Source of the DNA: Thermoproteus sp.
Lineage (GTDB): Archaea; Thermoproteota; Thermoprotei; Thermoproteales; Thermoproteaceae
Direction of reading: 5' to 3'
Assembly (NCBI GenBank): GCA_049976425.1
Contig: JBMFIG010000004.1
Span: 26,503 to 90,502, forward strand
DNA length: 64,000 nt
Each line of letters opens with the position of its first letter. Position 1 is the stretch's first letter. The notes below the pieces were generated by a model. That model was not told where the DNA came from. It ran no database searches and saw only the letters and a list, made by a program, of their open reading frames with translations. Shown piece by piece: positions 5,309 to 33,958 of this stretch. The position numbers and the translations under genes were made by a program.

Positions 5309-6550
5309 ATGACTACATGGACGGAACATGTCTTTGCCAAGAAGCTGGGCAGGGCGCCGGCCCCCGGCGAGGTTGTTGAGCTGGTCCCCGATCTGGTAGC
5401 CTTCCACGACCTCACAGGCTACCACGTGCTCGAGATGATGGAGAAGATGGGCGGCGTCGAGGTGTTCGACAAGGACAAGCTGGTTGTGGCGTTCGACCAC
5501 CTGTCGCCCGCCCCCACTGTCAGAGCCGCTGAGATACAGGTCTACATCCGCCGCCACGTGAGGTCCCTCGGCCTAAAGAACTTCCACGACGTGGGGGAGG
5601 GTATAATGCACCAGCTGATCCTCGAGAAATACGCCATGCCGGGGCAGTTCGTCTTCGGCGCCGACTCCCACACGAACATGGCGGGCGCCGTCGGCGCGTT
5701 CGCGCAAGGCATGGGCGCCTCCGACATAGCCGCCATGTTGAAGCTCGGGAGGACTTGGCTAGTTGTGCCCCAGCCCGTGAAGATCGAGATAAGGGGGGAG
5801 CCCCCCAAGGCGGTCACCGGCAAGGACGTGGTGCTCCACCTACTGTCTGTCTACAAGGCGGAGGGGCTCAACGGCTACTCCGCCGACGTATACGTGGAGA
5901 GGCCCTCCGCGTTCCCCATGGACTACAGAGCCACGGTGGCCAACATGTCGACGGAGCTGGGCGCAGACGCGTTGATGTTCGTGCCCGATTCCGAGACGGC
6001 CGCGTTCCTCGAGAAGACCAGAGGCGCCGTCCCCAAGATAGACTTCGCGCCGGGCGGAAAATACTCCGACGAATACGCCGTCGAGCTCGGCAGGCTGGAG
6101 CCCCTAGTCGCCGCGCCGCACAGCGTGGACAACGTCAAGGCCGTGTCGGAGGTCGAGGGCGTCGAGGTCGACCAGGTCTTCATAGGTAGTTGCACCAACG
6201 GGAGGCTCAGCGACATAGAGGCGGCCGCCAAAATACTCAAGAGGGGTAGGGCCAAGGCCCGTTGTATAGCGATACCCGCCTCCTACTCGGTCTTCCGGCA
6301 GGCCTTGGAGGCCGGCTATATAGATATCTTGACCAAGGCAGGCTGTGTGGTGACCTACGGCACCTGCGGCCCTTGTATAGGAGGCCACTTCGGCGTCTTG
6401 GGCCCCGGCGAGGTGGCCGTGTCGACTAGCAACCGCAACTTCGTGGGCAGGATGGGCGCAAACGACTCCAAGGTGTACCTAGCCAACGCCTACACTGCGG
6501 CGGCCGCCGCGTTGGAGGGCAAGATAGTCGACCCGAGGAGGTATCTCTAA
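5309..6550 (+). CDS. leuC: 3-isopropylmalate dehydratase/homoaconitase large subunit
   Basis: [23 protein letters not shown] and STSNRNF aconitase-family motifs. Confidence 0.92.
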
Positions 6551-7384: not shown

Positions 7385-8529
7385 CTATAAAAATACGGGA
7401 ACTCCTCTGAACTCCTCCACAAAGGCCTTGATCGCCTTTTCGTCCACGGGCCTCTTCCTTGCGGCGTAGTCCTTGACGCGCCTCAAGATATAGTCGACGA
7501 GCTCTGGGCTGGGCTCCAGCCCCATCTGCTTCAAGGCCCACTCGACGGAGTGCCTCCCCGAGTGCTTCCCCAGCACTATCCTCCTCCTGTTCCCCACGGC
7601 CTCGGGCATCATGGGCTCGTAGGTGAAGGGGTTGTTGAGGACGCCGTGGACGTGGATGCCGGACTCGTGGCTGAAGGCGTTGTCGCCCACGACTGCTTTG
7701 TTGGGCTGTAGCTGGATCCCGAAGAGCCTAGCCACCAGCCGCGACGTCTCGTAGAGCCGCTCCATCCTAAGGCCGACCTCGCGGCCCAGCAGAAAGCGGG
7801 CGGCGGCGGCCACCTCCTCCAGCGCCGCGTTGCCGCCCCTCTCGCCGAACCCGTTGACAGTGACTTGGGCCACCTCGGCGCCCGCCTCTATCGCGGCGAT
7901 GGTGTTGGCCACCGCCATGCCGAAGTCGTCGTGGCAGTGCACGTGCATGGGGACCGGCGGGAGCTCGGCCTTGAGGTGCTCCACCAGATACCTCATCCTG
8001 CTGGGCGTCATCACGCCGACGGTGTCGGGCACGTTTATCTCGTCGGCGCCTGCCTCTATCGCCGTTCTGAACGCCTCGACGAGGAAGCCCAAATCGCTCC
8101 TGGTGGCGTCCTCGGCGCTGAAGAGAACCCTAACCCCTCTGGACTTGGCGTACTCCACAGACTCAGCGATCCTCCGCAACACCTCGTCCCGCGTCATCCT
8201 CAGCTTGTACTTCATGTGTATATCGCTCGTCGCTATGAAGACGTGGACCATGTCCACATCGGCGTCGACGGCGGCGTCTATGTCGGCCTTGTTGGCCCGC
8301 GCCAGGCTGGCCACCTCTGAATACGCCGCGTCCCGCGCTATTCTCCTCACCGCCTCGGCCTCCTCGGGCGACACGGCCGCGAAGCCGGCCTCTATATAGT
8401 CCACCTTTAGTTCGTCCAACGCCATGCCTATCTGGACCTTCTCTTCGACGGTCAGAGAGATGCCGGGCATCTGTTCGCCGTCTCTGAGGGTGGTGTCGAA
8501 GAACCTCACCCGGTGAGCCCCGAATCCAT
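7385..8529 (-). CDS. leuA: 2-isopropylmalate synthase lacking the C-terminal regulatory domain; proposed start ATG 8529 with a -1 frameshift at about 8521-8518 (in-frame GTG at 8509 is an alternative start)
   Basis: [23 protein letters not shown] and HESGIH motifs; Leu codon in the leader supports the Leu-pathway assignment. Confidence 0.85.
8506..8529 (-). promoter_or_regulatory. leuA leader ORF MDSGLTG* with slip site TCG-GGG-CTC(Leu)
   Basis: ATG GAT TCG GGG CTC ACC GGG TGA; TTTTATATA at 8555-8547; -1 frame reads [17 protein letters not shown]. Confidence 0.8.
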
Positions 8530-8615
8530 ATAGCCCAGAAGCGATCTATATAAAAGGTTTTCGCCCTATATAATAGTTCACATCCGTGCTTATAAATAGA
8601 AGTCGGGTAGGCGTC

Positions 8616-9176
8616 ATGCTGAAGAAGGAAGGAGTCGAAAAGGCGGAGGCCGCCGTAACGTCCTTGTTGATCCACCTCGGCGAGGATCTATCGAGGCCCG
8701 GCGTGGCCAACACGCCGAAGCGCTTCGTCAAGGCCATGGAGGAGCTCACGAGGGGGTTGAGGGAGCCGGCGCCCGAGGTGGTCTTCTTCCCTCTGGAGTA
8801 CGAGGCGGATCCGGGCCCCGTCGTCATCGAGAACATAAGGGCGGTATCCCTCTGCGAACACCACCTGCTCCCCATAGTGCTCAACATATCTGTGGCCTAC
8901 CAGCCCGGCGACGCCGTGCCGGGGCTCAGCAAGGTGATAAGGCTGGTCAAGTGGGCCGCGGCGAGGCCCATAATGCAGGAGAGGTTCACCGAGTGGCTGG
9001 CCGACCTCCTCATGGACAGGCTGAAGGCCAAGGCGGTCAAGGTCAAGGTGTGCGGCGTCCATATGTGCTCCTTCATAAGAGGCGTCAAGGACGAGCACCA
9101 CACGATGATCACCGAGGCCAGGAGGGGCGATCTGGACGTAAGGCTCGACTGCAAACGCCCCCTGGCCTGTAGATGA
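8616..9176 (+). CDS. folE: GTP cyclohydrolase I (type IA)
   Basis: NTPKR, SLCEHHLLP, GLSK, QER and HMC..RGV motifs; TTATAAAT at 8590 supports ATG 8616. Confidence 0.9.
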   Translation: MLKKEGVEKAEAAVTSLLIHLGEDLSRPGVANTPKRFVKAMEELTRGLREPAPEVVFFPLEYEADPGPVVIENIRAVSLCEHHLLPIVLNISVAYQPGDAVPGLSKVIRLVKWAAARPIMQERFTEWLADLLMDRLKAKAVKVKVCGVHMCSFIRGVKDEHHTMITEARRGDLDVRLDCKRPLACR

Positions 9177-22264: not shown

Positions 22265-24025
22265 ACCTCAACGACACGTCCTCCATCCCCTCGGGCAGAA
22301 TTGCTTGGGTTAGCCAATCGCCGGGCTTCACCCAAGGCAACACGATGTCCTTGTCCTCGTCTATGGTCACGTCTATCACTATAGGCTCGTTGTTCCTCAC
22401 AGCCCACGACACGGCCCTCTCCAGCTCCTCGTAGGTCGACGGCTTGACGCCCTCTATCCCGTAGGCCTCCGCTATCTTCAAGAAGTCGGGGTTCCTCGCG
22501 AACCTCACGGCGATCTGCCTATTGCCGTACATGTAGACCTGCCACTGCTTGACCAGCTGTAAGGACGCGTTGTCGAATATCACCTCGACAAAGGGCAGAT
22601 CGTACTCCCTCACCAGCGCGAGGTTGTTGAAGGTCATCTGGAACGACCCGTCGCCGTCTATACACACGACGGGCCTAGAGCGGTCGGCGAGCTTGGCGCC
22701 GAGAGCCGCAGGTATGCCGAAGCCCATCGTGCCCAGGCCGGCCGACGTTATGAAGGTCCCCGGCTCGTACACCTCCCACCAGATCTCCGACCACATCTGG
22801 TGTCCCCCCACGCCCGTCACGGTGACGGCGTTCGGCGGCGTGGCCCTCCTCACCGCCTTTAGCACCTTCCAGGGCGCGAAGTACTTGAACTTGCCGGCGG
22901 CCTTCTCCATGGCCTCTTCGTACCTCCTCCTGATCTCGTAAAGCCAGGCGAGGAACTTGGGGCTCCTCGCGGCGGCCGACGGCATTAGGTCCAGCATCTC
23001 CCTAAGAGCCTCCTTGGCGTCCGCTATTATGCCGACGGTGGGCTTCACGTTCTTCCCCACCTCGCTTCGGTCGATATCTATATGGATCAGCTTGACCTCG
23101 CCCGACCTAACCATCTCCTGGAGCTCCTTGAACCTCCCCCAAGTCCTGTCGCTGAACCTGGTCCCCACGGCCACCACCACGTCGGCGTTTGCCAAAGCCG
23201 CGTCCGCCTCGGCCCTCCCGTGCATCCCGGCCGGCCCCATATACAGCGGGTGGTTGTGGGGGATGGCGGCCTTCCCGGGCAAGGTCGACACGATGGGCGC
23301 ATTGAGCCTCTCGGCGAGCTCCAGCACCTCCTTGGTGGCGCCCGACCACAACACTCCGCCTCCCGCCAGCACCACCGGCCTCTCCGCCTCCAAGATCATC
23401 TTGACGGCCTTCGCCACGTCCTCCTCCCTGGGCTTGGGAGGTATGAACTTTGCCGCGTTTATCTGTATCTTGGCCTCGCCCCTATACTCCATCAGCTGGA
23501 GATCCCTCGGCAGATCCACCAAGGTCGGTCCGGGCCTCCCCAGCATCGAGATCTCGTAGGCGATCTTGACGGCGGCCGTGGCCTCCTCCGGCCTCTTCAC
23601 CTGGTACACCCACTTGGTTATAGGCGTCGCCACCCCCAATATGTCGGTCTCCTGGAACCCATCCCTCCCGAACACCCACGTGGCTACCTGCCCCGTTATC
23701 GCCGCGACGGGCACCGAGTCCATGTAGGCGTCGGTCAAGCCAGTCACCAAGTTCGTGGCGCCGGGGCCGCTCGTAGCGGCCACCACGGCGGGCCTCCCCG
23801 CTACTCTGGCGTAGCCCTCGGCTGCGTGCACGGCGCCCTGCTCGTGGCGGAACATGACCACCTCTATGTCGTCTACGAAATACGCCGCGTCGAATAGGGC
23901 CATTATAGAGCCGCCCGTTATTCCGAGGATGTGCCTTACCTTGAGCTCCCTAAGCGTGTCGATTATTCTGTCGACGACTCTATTGGGGCGATCCCCTCGA
24001 GCCCCGAAGCGACCCCCGAATCCAT
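22251..24025 (-). CDS. ilvB: Acetolactate synthase large subunit; proposed start ATG 24025 with a -1 frameshift in the leader
   Basis: [32 protein letters not shown] and DGDGSF; the only in-frame start (TTG 24032) lies upstream of the expected transcription start. Confidence 0.92.
23963..24025 (-). promoter_or_regulatory. ilvB leader [23 protein letters not shown] with three slip sites G-GGG-GTC(Val), G-GGG-CTC(Leu), G-GGG-ATC(Ile)
   Basis: ATG GAT TCG GGG GTC GCT TCG GGG CTC GAG GGG ATC ... TAA; TTTAAATA at 24052-24045. Confidence 0.85.
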
Positions 24026-24128: not shown

Positions 24129-24617
24129 ATGGAGATAAGAGGTCGGGCACTGGTCTACGGCGATAAGATAGACACCGATATAATCATACCGGCCCGCTAT
24201 CTGGTATACACCGACCCCAAGATCTTGGGCGAACACGCCATGGAGCCTCTGGACCCCGACTTCCCCAAGAAGGCCAAAGGCGCCATACTGGTGGCCGGCA
24301 GGGCCTTCGGGATGGGCAGCAGCCGCGAGCAGGCGGCGACGGCCCTCAAGGGCGCCGGCGTCTTAGCCGTCGTGGCCGAGTCCTTCGCCCGCATATTCTT
24401 CCGCAACGCCGTCAACGTAGGCCTTCCCGTCCTTCAAGCCCCCGCCAGGAGCAGAGTGAGAGAGGGCGACGAGCTCCTCGTGAGGCTGGACGCGGGCGAG
24501 GTGGTGAACCTCACCACTGGCGAGGTCATCAAGGGGAAGCCGCTCTCCGGCTTGGTCCTCGACATAATAAAAGCGGGCGGCCTCGTGGAGTACCTAAAGG
24601 CCAGGCCCCGTATATAG
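24129..24617 (+). CDS. leuD: 3-isopropylmalate dehydratase/homoaconitase small subunit
   Basis: [38 protein letters not shown] and GGL. Confidence 0.92.
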
Positions 24618-24666: not shown

Positions 24667-24687
24667 ATGCGTTCGGGGAAAACGTAA
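24667..24687 (+). promoter_or_regulatory. Homocitrate synthase leader ORF MRSGKT* with slip site TCG-GGG-AAA(Lys)
   Basis: ATG CGT TCG GGG AAA ACG TAA; CTTAAATA at 24640-24647; -1 frame reads GENVKILDSTLREGEQ. Confidence 0.85.
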
Positions 24688-28936: not shown

Positions 28937-30159
28937 TTATTTCTTATCCATAGATCTTTTACTTAACGCCGTCAAGCTATGTAGCGACCACATCTCTATG
29001 AACCCCCTCGCCTCCTCGTCGGTCGGGTACCACCCCTTGGAGTAGTCCGCCAGCTCCTTGCTGTAGGTGCCGTATTTGGAGTCCCTGGCGACTATCTGCA
29101 CAGATCCCTTGTAGAGCTTCGCCTTCACCCACCCGTCGACCCACCTCTCCATCTCGCCGGCGGCCGCCTCGATGGCGAGCCTGAGCGGCTCCACCCACAG
29201 CCCCTGGTAGACTAGGTCTGCCCAGTAGGGGTCGAGGACGTTGTGCTTGAACCTGAGCTCCCTCGGCGTGAGGACCAGCTTCTCGAGATCCCTATGCGAC
29301 TCGAAGAGTATGACCGCGGCGGGGGCCTCGTACACCTCTCTGCTCTTGAAGCCCACCAGCCTGCTCTCGATGTGGTCTATCCTCCCGACCCCCGCGGCTC
29401 CGCCTATCTGGTTAAGCGCCTTCACGAGGGAGAGCATGTCCATGCGCTCGCCGTTGATAGCCCTAGGCAGGCCCCCCTCGAACTCTATCTCCACGTAGGT
29501 TGGCTGGTCGGGCGCCTTCTCGGGCTGGACGGTCCACTTGAAGGCGTCCTCGGGCGGCTCGAGCCTCTGGTCGTCGACGGGCCCTCCCTCTATGGAGCGG
29601 CTCCAGAGGTTCTCGTCTATGCTGTACTTCTTGTGGGCCTCCGGCACAGGTATGCCGTGCTTCTTGGCGTACTCGATCTCCTGCTCCCTGCCCATGCCCC
29701 AAACCCTCGCGGGGGCCAACACCTCCAAGTCGGGCGCAAGGGCCTTTGCGGTGACGTCGAAACGGACCTGGTCGTTTCCCTTGCTGGTGCTCCCGTGGGC
29801 TATGGCGTCAGCCCCCTCGCGCCTCGCCACCTCGACGGTCTTCGCGACAATCAGCGGCCTGGCCAACGCAGTGCCTAGGGGGTACTTCCCCTCGTACATG
29901 GCGTTCATGAGGACGGCCCTGCCGACGTACTCCTCGGCGAATTCCCTCTTGGCGTCTATGGTGTAGTGCTTGACCGCGCCGGCCTTATAGGCCCTCGCCT
30001 CGACCTCCGAGAAGTCCTCCTCCTGCCCTACGTCGACCGTGACCGTGATAACCTCGGCGTTGTACTTCTCCGAGAGCCACTTGATGGCGACCGTGGTGTC
30101 GAGCCCGCCCGAGTAGGCGAGCGCGATCCTGCTTATTCTCGCCCCGACTTACTCGCCAT
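28937..30159 (-). CDS. argG: Argininosuccinate synthase; proposed start ATG 30159 with a -1 frameshift at about 30145-30142
   Basis: N-terminal LAYSGGLDT motif is in frame but has no ATG/GTG/TTG before it; YPLGTALARP, HGSTSKGNDQVRF and KSREVYEAP. Confidence 0.92.
30133..30159 (-). promoter_or_regulatory. argG leader ORF MASKSGRE* with slip site TCG-GGG-CGA(Arg)
   Basis: ATG GCG AGT AAG TCG GGG CGA GAA TAA; ATG overlaps the lysW 3' end after a purine-rich tract; -1 frame reads GARISRIALAYSGGLDT. Confidence 0.85.
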
Positions 30160-32224: not shown

Positions 32225-33276
32225 ATGGGGTGGGGAGGTATGTACCTAAGCCCTTGATCCTCGGGGAACCCCGCCGCTATGTTGAACGCCTGCACGGCCT
32301 GCCCGGCGGCCCCGCGCACCAAGTTGTCTATGGCCGAGAACGCGACGACCCTCCTCATCCTGGGATCTATCTCGAAGCCCACGTCGACTATGTTGGTGCC
32401 CAGTACATATTTTATATTTGGATAGCGCGCTAGGCCCAGCTTGTCCTTCACGATCCTCACGAACTTCGAGTCGCCGTACATGGCCCTATACGCCTTCCAC
32501 AACGTCGGCTCGTCCACGTCGCGTTCGGTGAACACGTGCGCCGTGGAGAGTATGCCCCTCACGGCGTCGACGGCGTGCGGCGTGTAGGCCACCCTCACCT
32601 CCCTCCCCGCAAGCCGCGAGAGCTCCTGCTCCACCTCCGCCGCGTGTCTGTGGTGAACCGGCTCGTAGGGCCTTATGACGTAGGTGCGGTGGCTGTGCAT
32701 GTCGAGGACCGACCCCTCGGCCCCGGCGCCTGAGGAGCCCATCTTCACGTCGATTACCGGCGGGAGGGGGCCTAGAAGCCCGTATTTGGCCAGAGGCGCG
32801 AGCGCCATTATGGATGCAGTGGCGGTGCACCCGGGAGACGCTATGAGCTTGGCGCCGGGTAGCTCGTCCTTGTGCAGTTCGGGGAGGCCGTAAACCGCCT
32901 TCTTCAAGAGATCGGGGTAGGGATGCGGCTGCGGCCACTTATACCACTCCACGTAGGCGTTGGGATCCTTCAGCCTGAAGTCGGCCGACAGGTCGACCAC
33001 CATGAGGCCGTGCTCGTACAGCTGGGGGACCCACTTGACCGACTCGCCGTGGGGAAGCGCCAGGAAGACCACGTCGGCCTTCAACGCGGCGTCGATGCTG
33101 GGCTCCACGAACTTGAGGTTTGTGAATCCCCTGAGGTTTGGGTGGATCCTGTAGACGTACTCCCCCTTGAACTTCCTAGAGGTGGCGCAGACTATCTCGA
33201 CCCCTCCGTGCTGTAGCAAGATGCGCAACAGCTCTCCGCCGGTGAATCCGGAGGCCCCCACTACGCAAGCCTTCAT
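32221..33276 (-). CDS. lysY: [LysW]-aminoadipyl/glutamyl-phosphate reductase (ArgC family)
   Basis: [34 protein letters not shown] and [12 protein letters not shown]. Confidence 0.93.
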
Positions 33277-33958
33277 GCCTCCTCCAGCCCGACCTCGGCC
33301 AGGAGCCTCGCCCTAGCCTCGTCCAGCTCCGGCACGGGGTCTACGTCTATCACGCGCTCCCCGTCGTCGTAGACGCCGAGCGTGATCTCAGCGTACTTGA
33401 GGCCCAGCGACCTCAACACCTCGCCCGCTATCCCGTCGATCCCGGGCACGGCGAACACCTTCCTGACCTCTCTGGGCTTGGGCATGGCGATGCTACCCTT
33501 GGCCAGGGGGTTCCTCATGTAGTTGCGGTGCTCCACGACGCTTTTGGCCCCCTCTACGCTAGTCACCGACACGTCTAGGCCCAGGCGCCAGACGGTCGCG
33601 AGGAGCCACGGCGGCTTGAAGTCCACCTTCTCCACGGCCTCCTCGTCGGAGAACACGAAGAAGTGGGGGCCGTATTTGGGCAACCAGTACAGCCTATTGA
33701 GCGCGTTGTATATGGCGTATGAGGGGTTTATCGATCTGCGGAACAGGGAGGCGTACACAGCGCCGAGGTACTGGTTCCTCGTCCTTATGAAGACGGTGAA
33801 GTCCCCGCCCTCGACATGTCCCTGGGATATATCGAGGATATCGGCATGCGCGCCGCGGGCCGATAGGAGCTTGGCGAGAAGCCTCTCGCCTAGCTCGGGC
33901 TTCTCGGATAGTATGAGTATCCTCGCCCCGTTGGCCCCGCTTTCCCCGCAAGGTCCAT
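33273..33958 (-). CDS. Degenerate LysX/ArgX (RimK ATP-grasp)-like protein, about 228 aa; start ATG 33958 requires a -1 frameshift
   Basis: Open frame RILILSEKPELGERLL...FIRT...SINPSYAI..ALNR...IDVDPVPEL parallels LysX (IN...I...D; EVN.VPEF); first gene of the lysY-lysZ operon with ATGA overlap. Confidence 0.6.
33890..33958 (-). promoter_or_regulatory. Leader ORF MDLAGKAGPTGRGYSYYPRSPS* with three slip sites G-GGG-AAA(Lys), G-GGG-CCA(Pro), G-GGG-CGA(Arg)
   Basis: ATG GAC CTT GCG GGG AAA GCG GGG CCA ACG GGG CGA ... TAG; TTTATATA at 33986-33979. Confidence 0.85.

Follow-up and report, generated by a model that had tools for sequence, protein, structure and literature searches.

In bacteria, the leu, ilvGMEDA and ilvBN operons are controlled by attenuation, in which, as at the locus described here, a short upstream leader open reading frame (ORF) carries codons for the end product. 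To our knowledge, no attenuation-like mechanism has been established for Crenarchaeota, and how these organisms match amino-acid synthesis to supply is largely unknown. Slippage of a single P-site tRNA into the -1 frame, with the A site left vacant by limitation of aminoacyl-tRNA, is established in bacteria and needs no stimulatory structure (PMC8211752; for slippage see also PMC5009743). A 2016 review of recoding states, of trans-frame proteins made on starvation, that "no examples are known" (PMC5009743), and according to a 2021 review no -1 case other than fucA1 has been reported in Archaea (PMC8211752). Pyrobaculum was the genus in which leaderless mRNAs first came to light (PMC6028130; PMC2151090). 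Here we describe a stretch of 64,000 nucleotides (nt) from Thermoproteus sp. (contig JBMFIG010000004.1, positions 26,503 to 90,502; hereafter the window), in which leuA, the gene for a 2-isopropylmalate synthase (IPMS)-type enzyme, is overlapped at its 5' end by a seven-codon leader holding a single leucine codon. We propose that this leader is probably a translational amino-acid sensor that works by -1 ribosomal frameshifting.

The leader, which encodes MDSGLTG and a stop codon at 8529-8506 of the minus strand (Table 1), was picked out by a sequence-only reading of this DNA and is both real and conserved. Among 80 leuA loci listed from a genome scan, six were from Thermoproteus or Pyrobaculum (L001-L006; 71-88% protein identity), and all six had an ATG, one free codon, the invariant TCGGGGCTC and an early stop. 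Their layout was a TATA box, 19-20 nt, the ATG, one codon, TCG GGG CTC, two codons and then TAA or TGA, with leuA in the -1 frame; when the window is included, a seven-codon leader with its stop at the identical place was present in 7/7 loci. None of the other 74 listed leuA loci, which came from Caldivirga, Sulfolobales, Desulfurococcales, Nitrososphaeria, Thermoplasmata and bacteria, had this arrangement in a tblastn-anchored test, and the taxonomic range of the leader is to be taken as a lower bound.

Across the seven leaders, codons 3, 4 and 5 (TCG, GGG and CTC) were each represented by one codon only, whereas codon 2 occurred in five forms, codon 6 in four and codon 7 in six. Conserved enzyme residues in the same seven sequences, which serve as an internal control, used two to five synonymous codons, the Leu of the TTLRDGEQ motif using five; kept as CTC in 7/7, the Leu codon of the leader behaves as the sensor that it had been taken for. 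Since the base before TCG varied (T, C or A), the conservation follows the codon phase of the leader. Before and at the slip site proposed below, the 0-frame codons were fixed and the enzyme-frame residue varied (F, L or I), while past it the enzyme frame was kept (Ala in 7/7 and Arg in 6/7, the latter from both CGT and CGC) and the 0 frame drifted. This pattern fits an enzyme whose N-terminus would arise by a -1 frameshift, which the earlier reading had named only as a check. A canonical in-frame start for leuA was missing in 5/7 genomes; the window and L002 have GTG.

According to the model that we propose, the leuA mRNA would be leaderless and translation would begin at ATG 8529. After Met-Asp-Ser-Gly, the Gly-tRNA would occupy GGG in the P site, with the Leu codon CTC in the A site; GGG is the codon preceding the A site, and 9 nt precede the slip site. 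With Leu-tRNA plentiful, Leu-Thr-Gly would be read and translation would stop at TGA, giving no enzyme. With Leu-tRNA scarce, the A site would stay empty and the peptidyl-tRNA-Gly would slip by -1 on G_GGG with perfect re-pairing, after which a codon starting with G (GCT, Ala, for leuA) would be offered in the A site and filled, and the ribosome would go on in the enzyme frame to make isopropylmalate synthase with a trans-frame N-terminus. The direction fits a biosynthetic gene, since shortage would lead to more enzyme. We infer that ribosomes do shift at these sites, that they do so by slippage in the P site while the A site is empty, and that shifting rises on starvation.

The leader ATG stands where a leaderless mRNA would begin. 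At leuA the TATA heptamer ends 19 nt ahead of it, as is likewise the case for the ilvB and homocitrate synthase leaders described below, and the columns of the B recognition element (BRE) and TATA box were conserved in 7/7 leuA loci, whereas the spacer between TATA box and ATG was not. A survey of the window and L001-L006 for ATGs located 18-20 nt past a TATA heptamer (TTWWAWA) returned 44. In the same sequences, the distance from TATA box to ATG was 19-20 nt for 24 of 32 ordinary ORF starts (ORFs of at least 100 codons; 19 nt in 17 and 20 nt in 7) and for 12/12 leaders. An in-phase G_GGG within codons 2-13 was found at 12 of the 44 TATA-proximal ATGs, and every one of these had a 0-frame ORF of at most 22 codons and a -1 ORF of at least 228 codons; among the other 32, none had an in-phase G_GGG and 25 began ORFs of at least 100 codons. 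The frame relation between leader and enzyme was -1 in 12/12. Re-pairing of G_GGG one base upstream is possible at all 12, the base before GGG always being G, and the E-site codon before the slip GGG was TCG, GCG, ACG or GAG. When GTG or TTG was allowed as the leader start at the leaderless position, one match appeared, which lay within an ordinary gene and was discarded. The regular spacing is also useful for calling start codons in this group; for example, the start of lysW is most likely ATG 30334 and not TTG 30373. The leuA leader and folE (ATG 8616, plus strand) diverge from an 86-nt promoter region, which holds a second TATA-like element, ATTATATAGGG, at 8563-8575 (minus strand).

Besides leuA, four further leaders were found when the window was scanned for an ATG, at most 12 codons, G_GGG, an early 0-frame stop and a long -1 ORF: those of ilvB (acetolactate synthase large subunit), homocitrate synthase, argG and the argC/lysY operon. 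A mirror scan for the +1 relation gave three matches, none of them at a gene start. Since the scan also returns matches inside genes, those within ordinary genes (many; L001-L006, L010 and L018) were dropped and only those 19-20 nt past a TATA box were kept; one further match, at 5029 of L004, has a Trp codon following G_GGG but falls within a gene that possesses a start of its own, and was likewise excluded.

The leuA and ilvB leaders have in common a 13-mer, TATGGATTCGGGG, of which the window holds exactly two copies, at 8530-8518 and, before ilvB, at 24026-24014 (both minus strand), in agreement with the sequence-only reading. That reading had also called the two leaders nearly identical, which is correct for the first four codons but not for the rest (7 versus 20 sense codons). 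A chance statistic for the 13-mer, allowing up to two mismatches, was uninformative (2 matches versus 1.82 expected, with 53 of 100 shuffles reaching 2). The pattern ATGNNNTCGGGG had three matches in the window versus 0.74 expected, and 6 of 100 shuffles reached three; each of the three is found 19 nt past a TATA heptamer, where a gene of amino-acid biosynthesis in the -1 frame begins, and it is because of this position that they stand above chance. In the ilvB leader, which has one Val, one Leu and two Ile codons among its 20, only one Ile codon directly follows G_GGG, and the G run is five long at the first site and four at the others; a -1 slip at any of the three sites would enter the ilvB frame. 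The leader resembles a multivalent branched-chain sensor, one that would respond to a shortage of any one of Val, Leu and Ile; its combination of Val, Leu and Ile codons is similar to that of multivalent attenuation in E. coli. The only canonical in-frame start near the ilvB N-terminus, TTG 24032, is just 12 nt past the TATA heptamer and therefore probably outside the transcript.

For homocitrate synthase and argG, the reading frames themselves point to a shift. The frame of homocitrate synthase is open from 24645 and contains no ATG, GTG or TTG before ATG 24795 (plus strand), a start at which would cost the protein ~35-50 positions at its N-terminus, among them the N-terminal strand and the LDSTLREGEQ motif; counted in the stop-to-stop frame, the HMGL-like domain starts with residue 14, and the conserved N-terminus would be accessible from the Lys leader at 24667 only. 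Homocitrate synthases with a RAM domain, like that of the window, are also encoded in L004 (12113, plus strand) and L005 (7125, minus strand), both with a leader in which G_GGG is followed by AAA and with the HMGL domain beginning 3-5 residues past the slip site. In L005, where an in-frame ATG, GTG or TTG is likewise absent before the catalytic N-terminal motifs, the leader stop lies inside the conserved catalytic LDSTLREGEQ-type motif, so re-initiation past the leader cannot give a whole enzyme. In argG the open frame reaches back to 30148, and 80 codons pass before the first canonical start, ATG 29908 (minus strand); this start-less part encodes the whole N-terminal HUP domain with its AYSGGLDT loop (PF00764, residues 7-167 versus profile positions 1-162 of 162). 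Since neither gene has a canonical in-frame start, both appear from their sequences to need the frame shift. argG is in the same frame as the upstream lysW-like gene, with only the lysW TAA (30151-30149) between them.

Database entries for argG reflect the same difficulty. The window protein matches an entry from Thermoproteus uzoniensis at 98%, a similarity by which the window belongs to this species or one closely related to it. Entries from Thermoproteus and Pyrobaculum use at least five different starts, among them proteins of 396 amino acids from an Ile codon and of 390-391 amino acids from a Leu codon, as well as truncated ones of 321-322, 341 and 366 amino acids. Such scatter is what gene callers produce where there is no real start codon.

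The argC/lysY operon consists of an unannotated 224-codon ORF (33273-33958, minus strand) and argC/lysY, the downstream gene being argC by TIGR01850 (407.9 bits). The ORF overlaps the start of argC/lysY, and its own first canonical start is at about codon 79. Neither Pfam nor NCBIfam gave a match for it, even with E thresholds of 10 and 0.1, and a protein atlas yielded unnamed clusters only, plus a weak lead to RimK-like ATP-grasp N-terminal domains (score 0.91, rank 24). Genes for the large and small subunits of isopropylmalate/homoaconitate dehydratase (5309-6550 and 24131-24617, plus strand) have ordinary leaderless ATGs and no G_GGG leader; the arrangement is limited to some pathway genes, namely those of the first committed enzymes, argG and the leading gene of the argC/lysY operon.

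The codon after G_GGG specified the product of the gene's own pathway at 8 of the 9 sites in the window. It was Leu for leuA, Lys for homocitrate synthase in 3/3 cases, Val, Leu and Ile for ilvB, Arg for argG, and Lys, Pro and Arg for the argC/lysY operon. The Lys codon (AAA) of the paralogue at 24667, to which the earlier reading had drawn attention, stands at the same position as the Leu codon of leuA and was found again in both Pyrobaculum homocitrate synthases recovered (L004 and L005). From amino-acid frequencies, the joint chance of the cognate matches is ~1e-7 by our own post hoc arithmetic, which counts Leu at leuA, Lys at homocitrate synthase, Arg at argG, a branched-chain amino acid at 3/3 ilvB sites and Lys or Arg at 2/3 sites of the argC/lysY operon. 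Some of the sensor codons are rare: in a codon usage drawn from 39 genes (15,929 codons), AAA made up 10% of Lys, CGA 3% of Arg and CCA 4% of Pro codons.

Table 1. Positions in the window of the leuA leader, its proposed working parts and the other G_GGG leaders.
Feature	Position	Strand	Description
leuA promoter	8547..8562	-	Purine-rich BRE-like stretch 8562-8556 and TATA box 8555-8547
leuA leader ORF (0 frame)	8506..8529	-	ATG GAT TCG GGG CTC ACC GGG TGA; 7 sense codons
Start ATG of leuA leader	8529-8527	-	At leaderless-start position
Proposed slip site G_GGG, leuA	8518..8521	-	0-frame Gly codon 8520-8518; identical -1 codon 8521-8519
Putative sensor codon CTC (Leu), leuA	8515..8517	-	A-site codon when Gly-tRNA occupies the P site
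GTG in enzyme frame	8507..8509	-	Overlaps leader stop TGA 8508-8506; possible but non-conserved alternative start
leuA enzyme frame	7385..8521	-	-1 relative to leader; stop codon 7387-7385
ilvB leader	23963..24025	-	20 sense codons; 3 G_GGG sites; ilvB frame -1
Putative ilvB sensor codons	GTC (Val) 24013-24011; CTC (Leu) 24001-23999; ATC (Ile) 23992-23990	-	In this order after G_GGG
Homocitrate synthase leader	24667..24687	+	Met-Arg-Ser-Gly-Lys-Thr-stop; G_GGG 24675-24678; putative sensor AAA (Lys) 24679-24681; enzyme frame -1
argG leader	30133..30159	-	Overlaps end of lysW-like gene; Met-Ala-Ser-Lys-Ser-Gly-Arg-Glu-stop; G_GGG 30145-30142; putative sensor CGA (Arg) 30141-30139; argG frame -1
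argC/lysY-operon leader	33890..33958	-	3 G_GGG sites, followed by AAA (Lys), CCA (Pro) and CGA (Arg); long ORF in -1 frame

Counted from GTG, the leuA protein has 374 amino acids (ORF 7385-8509, minus strand). HMGL-like (2-259) and HCS_D2 (273-352) were its only Pfam domains, with LeuA_dimer absent; as had been read from its C-terminus, the product is a short IPMS-type DRE-TIM enzyme without a regulatory domain, ending at residue 374. It passed the cutoffs of NF002085 (IPMS; 522.5 bits, cutoff 517) and TIGR02090 (isopropylmalate/citramalate/homocitrate synthases; 511.3, cutoff 484.75), and it covers positions 15-380 of a 504-position IPMS profile. The short form without regulatory domain is already known from Sulfolobales (NF041069, 371 positions). 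The leuA protein is like this group in domain content and length, both being without LeuA_dimer, and aligns with the profile end to end (1-366 against 1-367 of 371), but with a score of 500 against a curated cutoff of 600 it does not formally belong to the NF041069 equivalog. The sole pointer to its substrate specificity, and an indirect one, is the Leu sensor codon in its leader versus Lys in that of the paralogue. Translational control may take the place of feedback inhibition in leuA, as the sequence-only reading put forward. In the window, the paralogous homocitrate synthase has a C-terminal RAM/AsnC ligand-binding domain together with a leader; therefore, ligand-binding domain and leader are not mutually exclusive. 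Outside Thermoproteus and Pyrobaculum, leuA loci of Sulfolobales, Desulfurococcales and Ignisphaera have a common upstream motif, GGGATCYGTATTGCT, ~45-60 nt upstream of leuA (L026, L030, L032, L033 and L035), and the motif is GGTCTAGATTGCT in Caldivirga and CCTATTGTT in Pyrodictiaceae (further loci L010, L018; L007, L011). Each of the three has TTG followed immediately by a Leu codon, and they may, to judge from these letters, represent a different Leu-responsive leader of those lineages.

Several observations weigh against frameshifting at these leaders. GTG 8509 is canonical, in frame and at position 1 of the short IPMS profile, so a frameshift is not strictly required for leuA of the window or of L002, and the equivalent codon in the other leuA loci is always GTR or ATA, which are allowed starts in NCBI table 11. 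The argG leader is not universal in the family, proteins of the Pyrobaculum islandicum type starting with an ordinary-looking Met-Gly-Ala-Ser-Lys, and NCBI-style argG annotations in these genera do use GTR/ATA-type starts. The Pro codon of the argC/lysY-operon leader has no shown link to the operon, and CTC, GTC and ATC are common codons (38%, 41% and 29% of their families), so rarity is not a general property of the sensors. The comparison at leuA comprises seven sequences of one family, and the leaders of ilvB, argG and the argC/lysY operon are known at the DNA level from the window alone. Finally, one classical support for frameshifting is lost, in that no stimulatory structure downstream of the slip site was supported by RNAalifold on the seven leaders (-8.32 kcal/mol, with covariation contributing an unfavourable +1.02); in the main stem, invariant coding bases are the partners of the slip site itself. 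The missing structure is nonetheless compatible with slippage at a hungry codon. A hairpin, CTCAC/GTGAG, around GTG 8509 was dropped since it is missing from the sequences of the relatives.

The starts just mentioned lead to an alternative that we regard as unlikely, namely that ribosomes re-initiate after the leader, or initiate directly by near-cognate pairing, at the Val/Ile codon overlapping the leader stop, the leader merely tuning the number of ribosomes. The window and L002 both have GTGA, in which GTG and leader stop overlap, the overlap with GTG 8509-8507 having been pointed out in the sequence-only reading, and the stop-overlapping codon is ATA for argG and ilvB and GTA for homocitrate synthase of the window. 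However, GTG is found in just 2/7 leuA loci, the codon being GTA in 3/7 and ATA in 2/7, and it encodes a Val/Ile that is conserved in the enzymes of other archaea, even where the gene has its start farther upstream. The part of the earlier interpretation that we do not follow is re-initiation or gating at GTG 8509, a codon that would lie 20 nt inside an mRNA starting at the leader ATG. In 3/7 independent leaders, those of homocitrate synthase in L004 and L005 and that of the argC/lysY operon, the stop-overlapping codon is CTA, and for L005 homocitrate synthase, with its stop inside the catalytic motif, the explanation fails. It also leaves the invariant G_GGG and the cognate codon unexplained, and the enzyme-frame Ala and Arg upstream of the supposed start are conserved. 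Moreover, since a ribosome stalled at Leu would lower re-initiation, it predicts less enzyme under amino-acid shortage, which is the wrong direction for a biosynthetic gene. We give slightly less credence still to a constitutive, unregulated -1 frameshift, or to tolerated and "corrected" indels, with a fixed slip rate setting low expression without sensing. The anatomy would be the same, and G_GGN-type tetramers are known as -1 motifs in E. coli (PMC4066793), but the codon for the pathway's own product at 8/9 sites and the exact Val, Leu and Ile of ilvB would be unexplained, as would a sensor that is invariant in 7/7 leuA and 3/3 homocitrate synthase leaders while neighbouring codons drift.

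The remaining explanations place the event at the level of RNA synthesis or DNA. G-tract length instability has been reported for Pyrobaculum aerophilum, and since the two frames differ by one base at a G run near the transcript start, transcriptional slippage or phase variation adding one G would put the ATG in the enzyme frame. We consider this quite improbable: the run has only four G (five at the first ilvB site), the "off" length at leuA is the same in 7/7 genomes, unlike the outcome expected of phase variation, and the sites lie at differing distances from the start, that of argG inside an operon and those of ilvB three in a row. Nucleotide supply, in addition, would not account for amino-acid-specific codons. 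Least probable of all is that the 13-mer serves a transcription factor of branched-chain genes as its DNA operator, or recurs by chance, and that the small ORF is untranslated. Archaeal repressors often bind over the transcription start, the 13-mer overlaps the expected one, and exact copies stand at two promoters of related pathways; yet in the relatives invariance is confined to TCGGGGCTC, downstream of the ATG, and the operator was rejected on the ground that the second codon and the whole spacer between TATA box and ATG vary. The conserved block has no dyad symmetry, it is in codon phase, and the variable base after it tracks the pathway product across unrelated genes.

Amino-acid-responsive frameshifting would extend beyond leuA, with the same device at four or more other amino-acid operons in the window, each with its own end-product codon; at all leaders, plentiful cognate tRNA would let a peptide of 6-22 residues end translation. 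We consider it rather likely, if a little less so than for leuA itself, that a general "frameshift attenuation" code, composed of a mini-ORF (leaderless or coupled), G_GGG and the end-product codon, governs amino-acid biosynthesis in Thermoproteus and Pyrobaculum. If true, no natural case of amino acids being sensed by ribosomal frameshifting would precede it, it would be only the second -1 frameshift reported in Archaea, and a slip site of four bases plus a single codon would suffice as a complete and portable sensor of amino acids, independent of protein factors and RNA structure. It also bears on annotation: gene callers mis-start or truncate these genes, as the argG entries illustrate, and the sensor codon could label pathway specificity, for example of IPMS versus homocitrate synthase or of the unannotated ORF before argC/lysY. 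No description of such an amino-acid-sensing frameshift leader was found in the literature searched, as far as the text available from it goes, and the main text of Antonov 2013 (PMC3711429) makes no mention of these genes.

Among described systems, bacterial attenuators depend on runs of cognate codons and on terminator and antiterminator hairpins. The leaders described here have single cognate codons, one Leu codon among the seven sense codons in the case of leuA; there were no terminator-like sites in 8300-8700 and no matches to Rfam families across the whole 64-kb window. Since the leuA leader overlaps the enzyme ORF, such hairpins have no room there, and the proposed read-out would be the reading frame and not the termination of transcription. 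The leaderless polycysteine short ORFs of mycobacteria are likewise first cistrons whose cognate codons control biosynthetic genes, but they are bacterial, contain Cys runs and precede a separate downstream gene, and no frameshift is mentioned in the part of the preprint consulted (bioRxiv 10.1101/834739). Bacterial prfB (RF2) and eukaryotic antizyme come close in logic: each has a short first ORF and needs a frameshift of the P-site tRNA, with a slow A-site codon reporting the regulated supply (PMC5009743; PMC1874602). The slow decoding is in turn relieved by the product. The early stop and overlapping, start-less main frame that mark those genes were also found at homocitrate synthase, argG and, in 5/7 genomes, leuA. 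They shift by +1, however, at a stop codon (RF2) or under modulation by polyamines, with a stimulator that is Shine-Dalgarno-like and upstream in prfB and downstream in antizyme, whereas the shift proposed here would be -1 on G_GGG at a sense codon read by aminoacyl-tRNA, and the leader site lies 3-10 codons from the 5' end of a presumably leaderless mRNA, with no Shine-Dalgarno-like or structural stimulator found.

Canonical -1 programmed frameshifting uses an X_XXY_YYZ heptamer with a conserved hairpin or pseudoknot 5-9 nt downstream, and neither was found at leuA; its heptamer T_TCG_GGG, with the following C, does not fit, the slippery part being the tetramer G_GGG alone. In fucA1 of Saccharolobus solfataricus slippage takes place on a heptamer, and no tie to the supply of amino acids is known. 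As proposed for the present leaders, a -1 shift yields the full-length archaeal enzyme, but in fucA1 it joins two ORFs within one split gene (PMC8211752), whereas here the tetramer stands at the start of the mRNA. Taken together, these comparisons and the sequence evidence make an amino-acid-responsive -1 frameshift, common to several Thermoproteus and Pyrobaculum operons, the best-supported mechanism. It would give a natural function to the long-studied "hungry codon" frameshift; the leftward frameshifting of E. coli (Gallant and Lindsley) was seen in starvation experiments and in constructs, whereas the leaders described here would represent a conserved natural switch.

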